The notes below the pieces were generated by a model. It searched no databases and was not told the origin of the DNA. It was given only the letters and a program-made list of their open reading frames with translations. A stretch of 64,000 nt of DNA from NCBI GenBank assembly GCA_000146465.1, contig CP001950.1, one strand, 5' to 3'. The translations under genes were made by a program, and so were the position numbers. The first letter of the stretch is position 1. Each line of letters begins with the position of its first letter. Positions 59,436 to 64,000 of the stretch are shown piece by piece.

Positions 59436-59858
59436 ATGTCAAGAACAAAACAGACAGCTTCAAAAGCACTTGGAGGAAAGGCTCCCAGAAAGGGCATGTC
59501 GATGAAGTCGGTCCCGTCGTCTGGATCTTCATCTGCCGTGCCTAAGGGGACGAGGTTCAAGGCTGGAGCTCTTGCCCTGAAGGAGATAAGAAAATACCAG
59601 AAGAGTACAGATCTGCTTATAAGGAAGAGGCCGTTCCAGAGGATGGTCCGGGAGTTATGCAAGAGCGGAGAAGGCATAAGATTCCAGGCTTCTGCAATTG
59701 TTGCCTTCCAGGAGGCTGTTGAAAATTTCCTTACAAATCTTGTGGAAGATGCCTATAGATGTGTTCTACATGCCAAAAGAGTTACTCTGATGCCGAAGGA
59801 TATTTGTCTTGTGTATAAGATAAAGTATGCGAACATTTTGTATGCAGCCCTTGACTGA
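59436..59858 (+). CDS. Histone H3 (divergent)
   Basis: MSRTKQTASKALGGKAPRK...LIRKRPFQRMVRE...RFQASAIVAFQEAVENFLTNLVEDAYRCVLHAKRVTLMPKDI follows H3 (ARTKQTARKSTGGKAPRK...LIRKLPFQRLVRE...HAKRVTIMPKDI). ATG confirmed. Confidence 0.85.
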   Translation: MSRTKQTASKALGGKAPRKGMSMKSVPSSGSSSAVPKGTRFKAGALALKEIRKYQKSTDLLIRKRPFQRMVRELCKSGEGIRFQASAIVAFQEAVENFLTNLVEDAYRCVLHAKRVTLMPKDICLVYKIKYANILYAALD

Positions 59859-59938: not shown

Positions 59939-60595
59939 ATGGGGGATGTTGTTTACATAGTCCATAGACAGCTTGAAAGAATACCAACCATTCCAGAGCA
60001 TGCGAGAACAGTTGACCTCCGCCGGAACAACATATCGGTTATGGCTTTGAACAAGGCAGAGTCTGTCGAGTATCTTGATCTATCAGACAACAGAATAAAG
60101 GTGATTTCCGACCTTGAAAATGTTCCGAATCTAAAGGTGTTGGATCTAAGCTACAACCTAATCACAGAAATTTCCATTCCCCGCATGGGTCTCTCGGAGC
60201 TGTATCTGATTTCTAATGACATTTCGACGATCCATGGGCTAGATCTTCCCTGCATCAAGAAGCTAGACATGGCCGTAAACGACATCTGTCAGATTGAAAA
60301 CCTCGAGAATTGTGCAACTCTAGAAGAGCTCTACCTCGGAAGCAACAGAATAAGAACAGTAGAAGGACTGTCCGAGCTCAAAGATTTGAAGGTATTGGAT
60401 CTTCAAAACAATGAACTTGAAGTGGTAGATTGCTCGGCAGTACCTTGTAATGTTGAAGTTCTTCTTCTTGGAGAGAACAGAAACCTTCAAATGATTGAGA
60501 ATCTCGAGTCATTAAAGAATCTCCGGATTCTGGGGCTGGAGAAGACAAGAGTGCCTTCTGATCTATTTGAGGGGTGTTTTACTGTTTGGCGCTAA
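59939..60595 (+). CDS. SDS22-like LRR protein (PP1 regulatory subunit type, 22-residue LRRs)
   Basis: LDLSDNRIKVISDLENVPNLKVLDLSYNLITEIS...LYLGSNRIRTVEGLSELKDLKVLDLQNNEL is the SDS22-type LRR periodicity. ATG confirmed. Confidence 0.55.
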   Translation: MGDVVYIVHRQLERIPTIPEHARTVDLRRNNISVMALNKAESVEYLDLSDNRIKVISDLENVPNLKVLDLSYNLITEISIPRMGLSELYLISNDISTIHGLDLPCIKKLDMAVNDICQIENLENCATLEELYLGSNRIRTVEGLSELKDLKVLDLQNNELEVVDCSAVPCNVEVLLLGENRNLQMIENLESLKNLRILGLEKTRVPSDLFEGCFTVWR

Positions 60596-60824
60596 CTCTT
60601 GCGAGCCCTCAATTGGTAGGACTTGATTCTTCAACACATAGGCCATTGGATAAGGATACTGACAAAACATTACCCATGGAGGAATGCTTTGAAAAAGAAA
60701 ACAAGAAAGGATGGATTAGCATCCAGGATTCAATGAAAAGATCTAACGACTTTTGGCTCAAGGATGACGATGCAACCTCCTATCTGAACAGGTTTGTTGT
60801 GTAGCCAAGGAATTGGTAATTAAA

Positions 60825-61235
60825 ATGGTTTTCTATGAAGCATTCTTTGAGTACTTTTCCAATCTATCCTCCGATAAAGAAATTTTCCATCCAGAACTAT
60901 CCCATATGATTGGAGGCCGATCAATCCTGAAGTTTCCATTTGTTGGTATTAGAAAAGGTATTTCGGGGAATGCAGTTCCCGGACTTGCATTGTCAATGGC
61001 TGTCCTTAAGCCCATTAGTGTTGTGATGCCCAAGGTCCTCACAGATAACCTCTACAAGGGTGCAATGGCGCTTGCTACTCGCCCGTTTTGTGTTGGAGAC
61101 AAAATTAAAATCGACAAATATGATGGACTTGTGAGGGACATAAGCTTTTGGTATGTGACGCTGGAGAGAGGAAAAGGCTATGTGTTCATACCCATGTCCC
61201 ATGTATATAATACTGTTGTTGAGCTGTTCAAATAG
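60825..61235 (+). CDS. Truncated MscS-like mechanosensitive channel protein (one pore-type TM plus beta-domain only, about 136 aa)
   Basis: GLALSMAVLKPISVVMPKVLTDNLYKGAMALATRPFCVGDKIKIDKYDGLVRDISFWYVTLERGKGYVFIPMSHVYNTVV matches the bacterial MscS TM3 and beta-domain signature (RPFxVGDxIxIxGxxGxVxxIxLRxTxIRxxDGxxVxIPNSxL). Track start 60813 is TTG; the ATG is at about 60825, with a stop at 60765-67 in frame upstream. Confidence 0.6.
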   Translation: MVFYEAFFEYFSNLSSDKEIFHPELSHMIGGRSILKFPFVGIRKGISGNAVPGLALSMAVLKPISVVMPKVLTDNLYKGAMALATRPFCVGDKIKIDKYDGLVRDISFWYVTLERGKGYVFIPMSHVYNTVVELFK

Positions 61236-61297
61236 CTTCAATGATGCTTAAGATGCAAAGCTATCCAGATGGAAACAGGCATCATAATAAATAAGGT

Positions 61298-62824
61298 TTA
61301 TTCTCTTGTTCTTTCTCTGGGCTTGCACTTGACAATTGCATCGCACTTGATTATCATTTGTGCAGCCTCCGATGCAGCAGTAACAACACGATGCTTGATT
61401 CTAAAGCTGTCCACAACCCCAGACTCCTTCATACAACCAACACTTCCGCTACGGACATTTACTCCATAGCTTGTCTTACCAGAGTTGTGCTCGGCCCTCA
61501 GACTTGCCCTTATGCCTTCTCCATCATATCCTCCGTTGTCCGCGAGTATCTTTGGAATTTGCTGCAAAGCATTTGAAAATGCTAAAATGGCTTCACTTTC
61601 AATCCCAGGAACCTCCATGGCATAAGTGTTTAGGTCGACTGCCATTGCCATCTCACTGGACCCTCCTCCATAGACAACACGCGGATCCTGCTTTATCTTC
61701 GACAGAACACATAGTGCATCATGAACACTTCTTTCTGCCTCGTCCAGCATCTCTTTCGATGATCCACACAGGACAATGGTGCTTGCTCCACTCTTCACCC
61801 CGCTAAACTTTATTGCTCTTTCGTTTCCAATGTAAACATTCTTGACATTCTTGCAGGTCCCATAGCATGTTTCATCCATGCTGTCGAACGTACTCAGTAT
61901 CTTTCCTCCAAGCACATTGGAGAGTCTTTCAACCCCATCAAAGTCTGCATGTTCAATGGCTTGGATTCCCTTTATCTTCAGGAGCTGGAGAGGATAATCG
62001 TATATAAGCTGTCTATTAATAAACATATTTATCCCGTTCTGGGAAATCCGCTCCACCTTTTCTTGAATCTTTCCCTTCTCCACCTTCTCCATCTCCTCAA
62101 GCTCCCCCACAGAGCTGACATTGATCTTAGCCCCAAATATCTTAATTTTGTCTTGATCCATGCTGGTGTTGGCTATCAGGATCTTTGGATCGTTCACCTC
62201 CTCTATTCGGACGTCTTTCTTTAGAAGAAACCCATCGTCGAGATATGAGTCCTCGAGCTTCCCAGAACACTTGATCACCTGTACAAGATTCAAGTCGTTC
62301 CTACCCCCAAGGTTCTCAATAGCATTGACACAGATGTTGCAGAACTTCTCCAGATCATACTTCAGAACCTTCGAGCACAGTGTTGTCCTGGCAAGCTTGA
62401 CCAGATCCTCTTTCGATGGGTTGAAGCTAATTCTCTTCAGCACTTCAGAACACCTAGCCTGTGCCATTCTATATCCCTTAAGGATCTTCGTTGGATGCAT
62501 CTCCAGCTTGCTGGCCTCCTTGACAAGTAGACTTGCCAAAATTGCAACAGAAGTCGTCCCATCTCCTTCCTCCCAGTCCTGTCCAGTGCTGGAGTTGATC
62601 AATATCCTTGCAGACGGGCTGTCGATCATCAGGTTCTTGAGAATAAATGCCCCGTCGTTGGTAACATGGACGCTTTGTCCCTTCAGCATCTTAAGCATCC
62701 CCTTTGGTCCAAGGGTTGTCTTCAGTATGTCTCCCACAATATCCGTCCCTGCAAGAATCGTTCTCTTTGCATCATCGCCTTTTTCCTCGGTGGTTCCCAG
62801 ATTTGCATGGCTGAAGATGTTCAT
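61298..62824 (-). CDS. CCT/TCP-1 chaperonin subunit (group II chaperonin), possibly alpha
   Basis: LGPKGMLKML, TNDGAFILK, QDWEEGDGTTSV, GGG..E. Track start 62950 is TTG; the first ATG (MNIFSHANL) is at about 62824. Confidence 0.85.
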   Translation of the reverse strand: MNIFSHANLGTTEEKGDDAKRTILAGTDIVGDILKTTLGPKGMLKMLKGQSVHVTNDGAFILKNLMIDSPSARILINSSTGQDWEEGDGTTSVAILASLLVKEASKLEMHPTKILKGYRMAQARCSEVLKRISFNPSKEDLVKLARTTLCSKVLKYDLEKFCNICVNAIENLGGRNDLNLVQVIKCSGKLEDSYLDDGFLLKKDVRIEEVNDPKILIANTSMDQDKIKIFGAKINVSSVGELEEMEKVEKGKIQEKVERISQNGINMFINRQLIYDYPLQLLKIKGIQAIEHADFDGVERLSNVLGGKILSTFDSMDETCYGTCKNVKNVYIGNERAIKFSGVKSGASTIVLCGSSKEMLDEAERSVHDALCVLSKIKQDPRVVYGGGSSEMAMAVDLNTYAMEVPGIESEAILAFSNALQQIPKILADNGGYDGEGIRASLRAEHNSGKTSYGVNVRSGSVGCMKESGVVDSFRIKHRVVTAASEAAQMIIKCDAIVKCKPRERTRE

Positions 62825-62857
62825 CTGGGGTGAAAATTTTGTTCTTCTTGTAAACCC

Positions 62858-64000
62858 ATGAACGAAGAACTTCCTGTGGCTCCACTTGTTATGAAGCCCA
62901 CAAGAATATACAACTATACTCAGCTGATAGCGTGTCTGAAGGCGAAGCAACAGAAACTGTCAAGATACAAGGCTTCAATACCGCCTAGTCCCTTCAAAGG
63001 TATCCTTGGGCCCAAGCAATGCCAATTTGATGTTGAGGACATAGTTAATGGGTTTCTGCATGAAAAGCTTAGGGCCAGGCAAAGGGAACATGAGAAGTCT
63101 ATGGACAAGATGTTTTCCCAATGTGTCAGGAGACATATTAAGGAGCTGAAGAGGGAAAACGATCTTTTTGTGGTTGGGAACAGCAAGATTGGAGGGAGGA
63201 TCAAGGCTTTGGAAGATGTGTTTGACAAGGATTTTGAAGACAAAGAGGGGGCCAATATCGCTGAAATGGAAGGGAAGGGCAAGTTCTTTGACGATGCTTT
63301 CCTTCTTGACATGTATATGTTTCTTAAGAGACTGAAACCTTCGGACTCCTTTGATCAAGAGATTAAGTTTCTTGGAGATGAATACTTGAGATATGTGGAG
63401 AGGTTTCTAAAGGAGAATGCAGACAAGATTAAAGAGCCACTTTGGGGGGAAGAAGACAAGATTTCTGTTTTTACCAAGCTTCGATATAGCAAGGAGGAAT
63501 ATGGCCTCGAAGTGTATGAGGGGAGATATATGTTTGCAGAGCTCTACACTCTTTTTAGATGTGGACTCTTGGATTCTGCAAAGGGACTTCTTGAGCGATT
63601 CCATGTTTTTTTTGAGCACATTTCACACAGATTCAAAACAAGCTTTGGTAGTTGGATTACCACAAGAACAAAACCGGCAGTTCCTGTCAAGATAGGGGGT
63701 TCTGACGACCTTTTCAAGGCGTTTCTTCTCGGATTGATGGATGAAAAAAGCAGAAGGATGGATGAAAGGATTATTGGCAGCATTGAGGATTTTGTGTGGA
63801 TGAATCTGATCTCGATTAACGAAGGGAGATCTGCCTCTGAGATTTTGAAGATGTTTAGGAACTACCAGAATCCAAAGGGCCTTTTCCTTGCATATGTGAT
63901 GCTTAAGGACTATGATAAAGCAATGAGCTTGATGTTCAAGGGAGACTTCTCTATAATTCCATCTTATTTCATAATGAAAGCCCTCTGTCCTCGATGCAAG
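62858..64000 (+). CDS. Hypothetical protein, partial (runs off the window end); helical; nucleoporin Nic96/Nup93-like is a weak guess
   Basis: Open frame from ATG at about 62858 (alternatives 62891 and 63101) to 64000 without a stop, translated by hand (…MDKMFSQCVRRHIKELKREN…FAELYTLFRCGLLDSAKGLLERF…). Absent from the ORF track because no stop lies in the window. Confidence 0.4.
   Translation, partial: MNEELPVAPLVMKPTRIYNYTQLIACLKAKQQKLSRYKASIPPSPFKGILGPKQCQFDVEDIVNGFLHEKLRARQREHEKSMDKMFSQCVRRHIKELKRENDLFVVGNSKIGGRIKALEDVFDKDFEDKEGANIAEMEGKGKFFDDAFLLDMYMFLKRLKPSDSFDQEIKFLGDEYLRYVERFLKENADKIKEPLWGEEDKISVFTKLRYSKEEYGLEVYEGRYMFAELYTLFRCGLLDSAKGLLERFHVFFEHISHRFKTSFGSWITTRTKPAVPVKIGGSDDLFKAFLLGLMDEKSRRMDERIIGSIEDFVWMNLISINEGRSASEILKMFRNYQNPKGLFLAYVMLKDYDKAMSLMFKGDFSIIPSYFIMKALCPRCK

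Follow-up and report, generated by a model that had tools for sequence, protein, structure and literature searches.

Eint_090480 of Encephalitozoon intestinalis as the microsporidian MscS2: an intact, constrained gene with a likely internal start codon

INTRODUCTION

Every microsporidian carries one bacterial-like, drastically reduced MscS2, explained by horizontal transfer to the ancestor that all members of the group share, and microsporidia also retain at least four canonical MscS1 genes (Nakjang 2013, PMC3879972). The same study gave the name MscS2 to the E. cuniculi gene ECU09_0470 and found this gene transcribed, with a significant difference in level between 24 and 48 h post infection. 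A structural follow-up catalogued 35 MscS2 proteins, from 73 aa upward, in which TM3b, the beta-domain and the equivalents of E. coli P129, G143 and P166 are conserved (Berg 2024, PMC11262690). N. displodere MscS2 needed detergent and behaved as a membrane protein, and the 8.3 A cryo-EM volume of a truncated construct fits a homoheptamer; in work cited in that paper, E. coli MscS variants without both C-terminal domains failed to insert into the membrane (PMC11262690). Published accounts ascribe both truncations of MscS2, N-terminal and C-terminal, to reduction relative to E. coli MscS. Outside microsporidia, TcMscS, which is devoid of TM1 and of the alpha/beta domain, is still mechanosensitive through lipid-mediated gating (PMC12334622).

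Here we analyze a 64,000-nt stretch of contig CP001950.1 (assembly GCA_000146465.1), called below the window. A preliminary description, made from the letters alone, had pointed, in what it took for a reduced parasite genome, to an MscS-like gene of bacterial type that is cut down to a single hydrophobic helix and a beta-domain; the gene that we find matches the MscS2 of PMC3879972 and PMC11262690 in these features. As MscS2 was already described in 2013, with the structural follow-up of 2024, the locus represents no new kind of object; it is a correct rediscovery. What the analysis adds is the confirmation of the E. intestinalis MscS2 copy as an intact, constrained ortholog, a correction of the start codon (109 aa instead of 136 aa), the observation that the motif of the pore-lining helix is not conserved in the genus, and a modestly new lead on the donor type.

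RESULTS AND DISCUSSION

Identity of the gene and its locus

In a search of 5.8 billion proteins the product of the window ORF was 100% identical to Eint_090480 (E. intestinalis ATCC 50506), a protein of 109 aa. The protein search also gave orthologs of 108-109 aa, 61-79% identical, from E. cuniculi, E. hellem, Ordospora colligata and further assemblies, and in assembly GCA_051312815.1 a gene was called at the position matching 60906..61235. The order of genes, polD (DNA polymerase delta), H4, H3, LRR, 42-aa sORF, MscS2, CCT, Nic96, is identical in four species; in E. cuniculi the syntenic gene is on chromosome IX, situated directly after the sORF ECU09_0465. We have hardly any doubt that Eint_090480 is the syntenic ortholog of ECU09_0470, i.e. 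the microsporidian MscS2. It is the only MscS-like locus in the window.

Beyond the genus, Eint_090480 could be aligned over its full length with 31 proteins of the MscS2 type, some of them named (from Vavraia, Spraguea and Astathelohania); a separate MscS2-type cluster contained named Vairimorpha ceranae proteins. Horizontal acquisition, raised as a possibility in the preliminary description, gains support from the bacterial affiliation of the closest non-microsporidian relatives and from the published transfer of MscS2 (PMC3879972). Taken as a whole, it is highly probable that Eint_090480 is the MscS2 of E. intestinalis, with bacterial MscS ancestry and under purifying selection. The features of the locus are collected in Table 1.

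Table 1. Features of the MscS2 locus, in window coordinates
Feature	Position	Strand	Basis
Small gene for a hydrophilic product of 42 aa (MEECFEKENKKGWISIQDSMKRSNDFWLKDDDATSYLNRFVV), flanked by LRR and MscS2	60676-60804	+	conserved; CCC motif right before ATG
27-codon in-frame extension, probably promoter/5' flank, non-coding	60825..60905	+	stops in sister species; CCC motif lacking in front of 60825
AAATTT-like signal (60880-60885) and CCC-like motif (60901-60903), just upstream of ATG 60906	60880..60903	+	conservation
MscS2 CDS (Eint_090480), likely start, 109 aa + stop	60906..61235	+	Eint_090480 identity, ortholog starts, dN/dS
Hydrophobic segment aa 23-41 (AVPGLALSMAVLKPISVVM), TM3a-like helix	60972..61028	+	Kyte-Doolittle, AlphaFold
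TM3b-like amphipathic helix aa 43-58, ending in RPF motif	61032..61079	+	E. coli alignment, AlphaFold
MscS beta-domain	61041..61220	+	PF00924 match, predicted strands, conserved residues
AATAAA, candidate polyadenylation signal, 51 nt past stop	61286..61291	+	read from sequence

Family membership and predicted fold

The HMM search proposed in the preliminary description was run and gave a match to Pfam PF00924 (MS_channel_2nd, beta-domain) over aa 77-136 of the 140-aa ORF, with E=4.3e-8 and 33.6 bits, above the curated gathering cutoff of 20.2 bits. The Pfam scan of the MscS2 ORF returned no family besides PF00924; PF21088 was undetected. All top 50 matches of a Foldseek search against the PDB were MscS-family channels (E down to 2.4e-5; 86-99 of 109 columns aligned), among them E. 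coli MscS, YnaI, MSL1, Flycatcher1 and the T. cruzi miniature MscS.

Two AlphaFold models were built, both of the monomer only: a first one with a shallower alignment, whose PDB matches were likewise confined to MscS-family channels, then an AlphaFold2 model with an alignment of 32 MscS2 sequences. The latter had a mean pLDDT of 76, with values above 90 for residues 51-109. A helix was predicted at 43-57 (block-mean pLDDT 80 for residues 41-50 and 91 for residues 51-60), followed by strands at 66-69, 72-79, 83-87 and 92-96 with pLDDT above 90 and by a short C-terminal element. The TM3a-like helix was placed at 23-34/39 with low confidence (pLDDT about 56-59).

The multiple alignment equates N48, G52, P60, F61, G74 and P96 of MscS2 with N117, G121, P129, F130, G143 and P166 of E. 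coli MscS. G74 and P96 were invariant across the 32 MscS2 sequences; P60, G74 and P96, all of them invariant or nearly so, are the same residues as those highlighted by Berg 2024. Thus, the part conserved with bacterial MscS is TM3b and the beta-domain, which are joined through the (R)PF turn.

The N-terminal part is different in character. Residues 23-41 make up the sole hydrophobic stretch of the protein and are the candidate for the single helix of the preliminary description; their hydrophobicity is only marginal, the Kyte-Doolittle 19-residue maximum being 1.73 vs 1.86 for E. coli TM3a. In the TM3a-equivalent, where the alignment is uncertain, both the Gly/Ala packing motif and the L105/L109-type seal are absent; the positions aligned, with the same uncertainty, to the seal and packing motif of E. 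coli TM3a hold K35, P36, V39, V40 and P42; three of these, K35, P36 and P42, do not vary within the Encephalitozoon/Ordospora set. Consequently, of the 'pore-helix/beta-domain signature' that had been reported, the beta-domain is borne out by PF00924, while the 'pore helix' corresponds to TM3b and the TM3a-like segment is without the Gly/Ala motif.

As for the ends of the protein, the stop at 61233 comes directly after the beta-domain, at a point corresponding to E. coli residue ~178; the C-terminal alpha/beta vestibule domain is indeed absent, as had been noticed earlier. With only 22 residues before the hydrophobic segment there is no TM1-TM2 tension-sensor paddle. The N-terminus is poorly conserved; in some proteins of the family, 84-90 aa in length, a hydrophobic segment is all but missing there.

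Channel or re-used ring

By analogy with N. displodere MscS2 and TcMscS, seven copies of MscS2 would form a ring around a central pore, with contacts through TM3b and the beta-domain, and this ring would be kept in or on the membrane by the N-terminal helices. As MscS2 has no alpha/beta vestibule, and none of its side portals, the TM3 helix bundle and the beta-domain ring would form the entire permeation path. If there is any gating, it would then have to be the work of a direct interplay between lipids and helices and not of a TM1-TM2 paddle. On these analogies, the chance that MscS2 still works as a membrane channel appears to us close to even, with the balance tilted slightly to the negative side. 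Against a channel speak the marginal hydrophobicity of the TM3a-like helix, the invariant Lys and two invariant Pro residues in it, the lack of the Gly/Ala motif and of the seal, and the low AlphaFold confidence for this helix. The relatives of 84-90 aa and the failed insertion of the shortened E. coli MscS variants point the same way.

One could speculate that MscS2 is no longer a channel, and that the heptameric ring of its Sm-like-fold beta-domains is re-used as a membrane-tethered or soluble scaffold; we hold this as a serious but tentative possibility. The loss of the TM3a pore motif, with K35, P36 and P42 invariant within the sole hydrophobic segment, agrees with such a change of role, as does the length of N-termini, which is highly variable across the MscS2 family, down to very short ones. 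Furthermore, TM predictors disagree in Berg 2024, whose authors suggest a new function (PMC11262690), and the four or more canonical MscS1 genes are retained alongside MscS2 (PMC3879972). On the other hand, conservation is highest in TM3b and in its contacts with the beta-domain, which are important in E. coli gating; the core of TM3 and beta-domain is still mechanosensitive in TcMscS without a vestibule (PMC12334622); and the N. displodere protein was detergent-dependent, with the behavior of a membrane protein (PMC11262690).

Start codon

The + strand frame of the gene is open from 60768 to 61232 and ends with the stop TAG at 61233-61235; its first TTG is at 60813 and its first ATG at 60825. 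We confirmed the TGA at 60765-60767, the in-frame stop which had been said to block a longer N-terminus, and the peptide quoted in the preliminary description, RPFCVGDKIKIDKYDGLVRDISFWYVTLERGKGYVFIPMSHVYNTVV, is encoded exactly. Of the 136-aa ORF proposed there (60825-61235), the + frame and the peptide are real; the start is more likely to be ATG 60906.

All eight orthologs begin at the Met homologous to ATG 60906, and the counterpart of the extension 60825-60905 has stop codons in the frame of the gene in three species, E. cuniculi, E. hellem and O. colligata. The sequence TCCCAT directly 5' of the ATG is common to all four species; GAAATTTTC, located ~20 nt further upstream, is common to E. 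intestinalis and E. cuniculi. Sequence inspection revealed no CCC motif before ATG 60825. In E. cuniculi, genuine starts are recognizable by CCC and AAATTT motifs and have 5'UTRs shorter than 7 nt, and AAUAAA is the polyadenylation signal (PMC2803860). Because of the sister-species stops in the extension and the conserved CCC motif before 60906, we favor this ATG; comparison of sequences thus makes a 109-aa product likely.

A product of 136 aa (from ATG 60825) or of 140 aa (from TTG 60813) is, in our judgment, improbable. It would make use of the frame that in E. intestinalis is open from 60768, and the extension bears a faint resemblance to the homologous stretch of E. hellem (FYEAFFEYFSNL vs SYEDVFEVFYNI). 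However, the counterparts in the three sister species are interrupted by in-frame stops, every one of the eight orthologs starts at the internal Met, the CCC and AAATTT signals would fall inside the extension, directly before 60906, and the deposited annotation has 109 aa.

Two neighboring genes present questions of annotation as well. The histone H3 ORF (59436-59858, +) codes for 140 aa, likewise in E. cuniculi, E. hellem and Ordospora; in one E. intestinalis assembly it was called with an internal start, as 120 aa (L001 2591-2953), a discrepancy of the same kind as that at the MscS2 start codon. The ORF of the CCT chaperonin subunit (61298-62950, -) has 550 aa when read from TTG, and the gene is called with 508 aa in all species; the 42 codons upstream of the called start are unlikely to be coding. 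The CCT gene is convergent with MscS2, with only 62 nt between the two stop codons.

Selection

The preliminary description had left room for a decaying pseudogene. Among the four species we observed dN/dS of 0.11-0.15 (Nei-Gojobori, where dS was computable); the proportions of synonymous differences were 0.59-0.80, i.e. saturated, vs 0.12-0.24 for non-synonymous ones. A decaying remnant of a transferred bacterial MscS is excluded, in our view with very little room left, by the low dN/dS together with an intact frame, a constant length (108-109 aa) and a constant position in the four species. The heavy shortening at either end, compared with E. coli MscS, and the modest Pfam score are features that one may expect of a remnant; however, an identical architecture is found in the distant Vavraia, Vairimorpha, Spraguea and Astathelohania. 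Expression, which had been suggested as a check, is known from the literature on orthologs: ECU09_0470 is transcribed (PMC3879972). Judged by its pattern of substitutions, MscS2 is a functional (selected) gene, not a pseudogene.

Upstream spacer and the 42-aa gene

The reading as an ordinary full-length MscS, with TM1-TM2 encoded by an overlooked exon upstream or hidden by a frameshift, can practically be set aside: its one attraction is the LRR-MscS2 spacer of about 310 nt, unusually long for a compact genome, yet this length is accounted for by another gene inside it, a separate hydrophilic 42-aa ORF that is read in another frame and has a CCC motif and a stop codon of its own, and the short architecture is seen in all microsporidia examined.

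Searches of the window led to the same result. With E. coli MscS (a query identical to PDB 6RLD) and three full-length bacterial mini-MscS (short proteins described in the next section) as tblastn queries, no TM1/TM2-like match appeared anywhere in the 64 kb; the matches were confined to 60960-61211. No 5' splice-site-like motif GT[AG][AT]GT occurs from 60596 to 60910. The earlier statements that TM1-TM2 are absent and that the upstream 230 nt encode nothing MscS-like are therefore upheld, with the addition that these nucleotides contain the conserved 42-aa gene. The upstream 76-aa ORF (60574-60804) was considered as a frameshifted TM1-TM2 region and rejected, as it is hydrophilic and has no Pfam match.

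The 42-aa ORF, the conserved core of this 76-aa ORF, is Eint_090475/ECU09_0465, a published gene that was validated by RACE in E. cuniculi and reported to be without an ortholog outside Encephalitozoon (PMC4589312). In Ordospora colligata we saw a syntenic ORF of 44 aa with the same FW-x-[DE]DD motif (L006, about 2755-2890). For the small gene pN/pS was 0.30-0.46. No Pfam match to the small protein was found even at E<=10, and the idea of a DSS1/Sem1-like acidic protein, prompted by the FW-x-DDD motif, was dropped.

Bacterial mini-MscS and the donor question

With a profile built from the eight closest proteins, 160 matches at E<=0.001 were obtained among 1.84 billion cluster representatives. 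The short matches included the MscS2 of Vavraia culicis, Trachipleistophora hominis (73 aa), Vairimorpha ceranae, Spraguea lophii and Astathelohania contejeani. Among the 103 single-domain matches, 86 end no more than 20 residues past the beta-domain and eight have a long canonical C-terminal tail. About 48 of the short-tailed matches exceed 140 aa, the majority having 141-210 aa; in both of the longer short-tailed proteins scanned against Pfam, TM2/3 (PF21088) is followed by the beta-domain.

We refer to such short bacterial proteins as mini-MscS. A locus scan with a six-sequence mini-MscS alignment, in one genome per GTDB species, detected at least 487 mini-MscS loci, present in Gammaproteobacteria, Planctomycetota, Verrucomicrobiota, Marinimicrobia, Spirochaetes and cyanobacteria (Phormidium, Oscillatoria). 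In 76 of the best 80 loci the stop lies within ~15 codons past the match, and ORF length has a median of 168.5 aa. Bacterial mini-MscS of ~166-185 aa combine TM1-3 with the beta-domain (loci L008-L087, e.g. L039 337-816 and L077 1501-1980).

Several comparisons place MscS2 closer to mini-MscS than to E. coli MscS: (i) a set of 62 unselected mini-MscS had a median score of 30.5 bits with the MscS2 profile, vs 9.7 for E. coli MscS; (ii) as tblastn queries on the window, mini-MscS reached E=1e-7 vs 0.1 for E. coli MscS; (iii) the best PDB match of the MscS2 profile was a 171-aa heptameric 'small-conductance mechanosensitive channel' (9SEH/9SDG and relatives). The 171-aa heptamer structures 9SDG, 9SEH, 9SDB and 9SED are of the mini-MscS type; a literature search on these codes found no paper on them. 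A few MscS proteins of canonical length also scored, at 36-39 bits, with the MscS2 profile.

An NJ tree of 145 beta-domain segments (67 columns) recovered an MscS2 clade, containing 40 of the 55 short proteins; the tree is poorly resolved, leaving the sister group of this clade unresolved and the canonical sequences unclustered. The phylogeny proposed in the preliminary description thus returned the clade and not its neighbor. One apparent member of the clade, P0095 (688 aa, repeat-rich), looks spurious.

On sequence grounds, mini-MscS are a possible donor type, not the family to which Eint_090480 belongs. The loss of the vestibule may have been inherited from a bacterial donor of the ~170-aa mini-MscS type, predating the transfer into microsporidia; we regard this as evenly balanced, since the NJ tree is weak and some canonical-length proteins score 36-39 bits. 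If it is true, the only microsporidian innovations would be the loss of TM1-TM2 and the remodelling of TM3a. Mini-MscS, with heptamer structures at hand, would make better comparators, and possible donors, than E. coli MscS.

Two kinds of proteins from these searches deserve mention. Proteins of 400-840 aa from Elusimicrobiota MAGs (P0015-P0018, P0020, P0021, P0024), which rank among the top matches of the MscS2 profile, have two MscS beta-domain matches per chain, in about half of the two-match proteins with the best-scoring match at the very C-terminus; this tandem architecture is unusual for a protein that normally forms heptamers. Another protein, P0101 (267 aa, from a JGI metagenome contig of 2999 nt), grouped with the MscS2 clade of the NJ tree and has a PTHSVYGKVVE-type C-terminus. 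Helices similar to TM2-TM3 are retained in it, and its N-terminal region is long and signal-peptide-like. Possibly, this protein represents an intermediate or early-branching form.

Comparison with known systems

The classical reference, E. coli MscS (YggB; PDB 2OAU, 6RLD), aligns with MscS2 in TM3b and the beta-domain, and the folds superpose over about 86-92 columns; the E. coli protein has 286 aa, the product of Eint_090480 109 aa, and the MscS2 profile gives the former only 9.7 bits.

TcMscS (T. cruzi, 165 aa; PDB 9BGQ) is, like MscS2, a parasite miniature without TM1 and vestibule, and in its heptamer TM3 and the beta-domain form the whole pore (PMC12334622). It keeps an N helix and TM2, that is, two membrane-embedded helices, whereas MscS2 has at most one. 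The two proteins belong to independent lineages, with 14-18% identity in structural alignments.

The mini-MscS of bacteria (~170 aa) resemble MscS2 in that they end within about 15 residues of the beta-domain; both kinds have the motif PF-VGD-I-(V/I)DKY(E/D)G-V-DI-(L/F)-Y, and it is mini-MscS that match the MscS2 profile best, in the PDB as well as among prokaryotic sequences. In contrast to MscS2, they keep TM1, TM2 and a canonical Gly-rich TM3a.

Finally, the described microsporidian MscS2 (ECU09_0470, N. displodere) and Eint_090480 have no substantial difference. Both are short, with a TM3-like helix and a beta-domain, and end right after the latter; both have the equivalents of P129, G143 and P166 and a bacterial affinity. 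In length, the MscS2 of Encephalitozoon and Ordospora (108-109 aa) lie within the family range, from 73 aa in Trachipleistophora hominis to about 140 aa.
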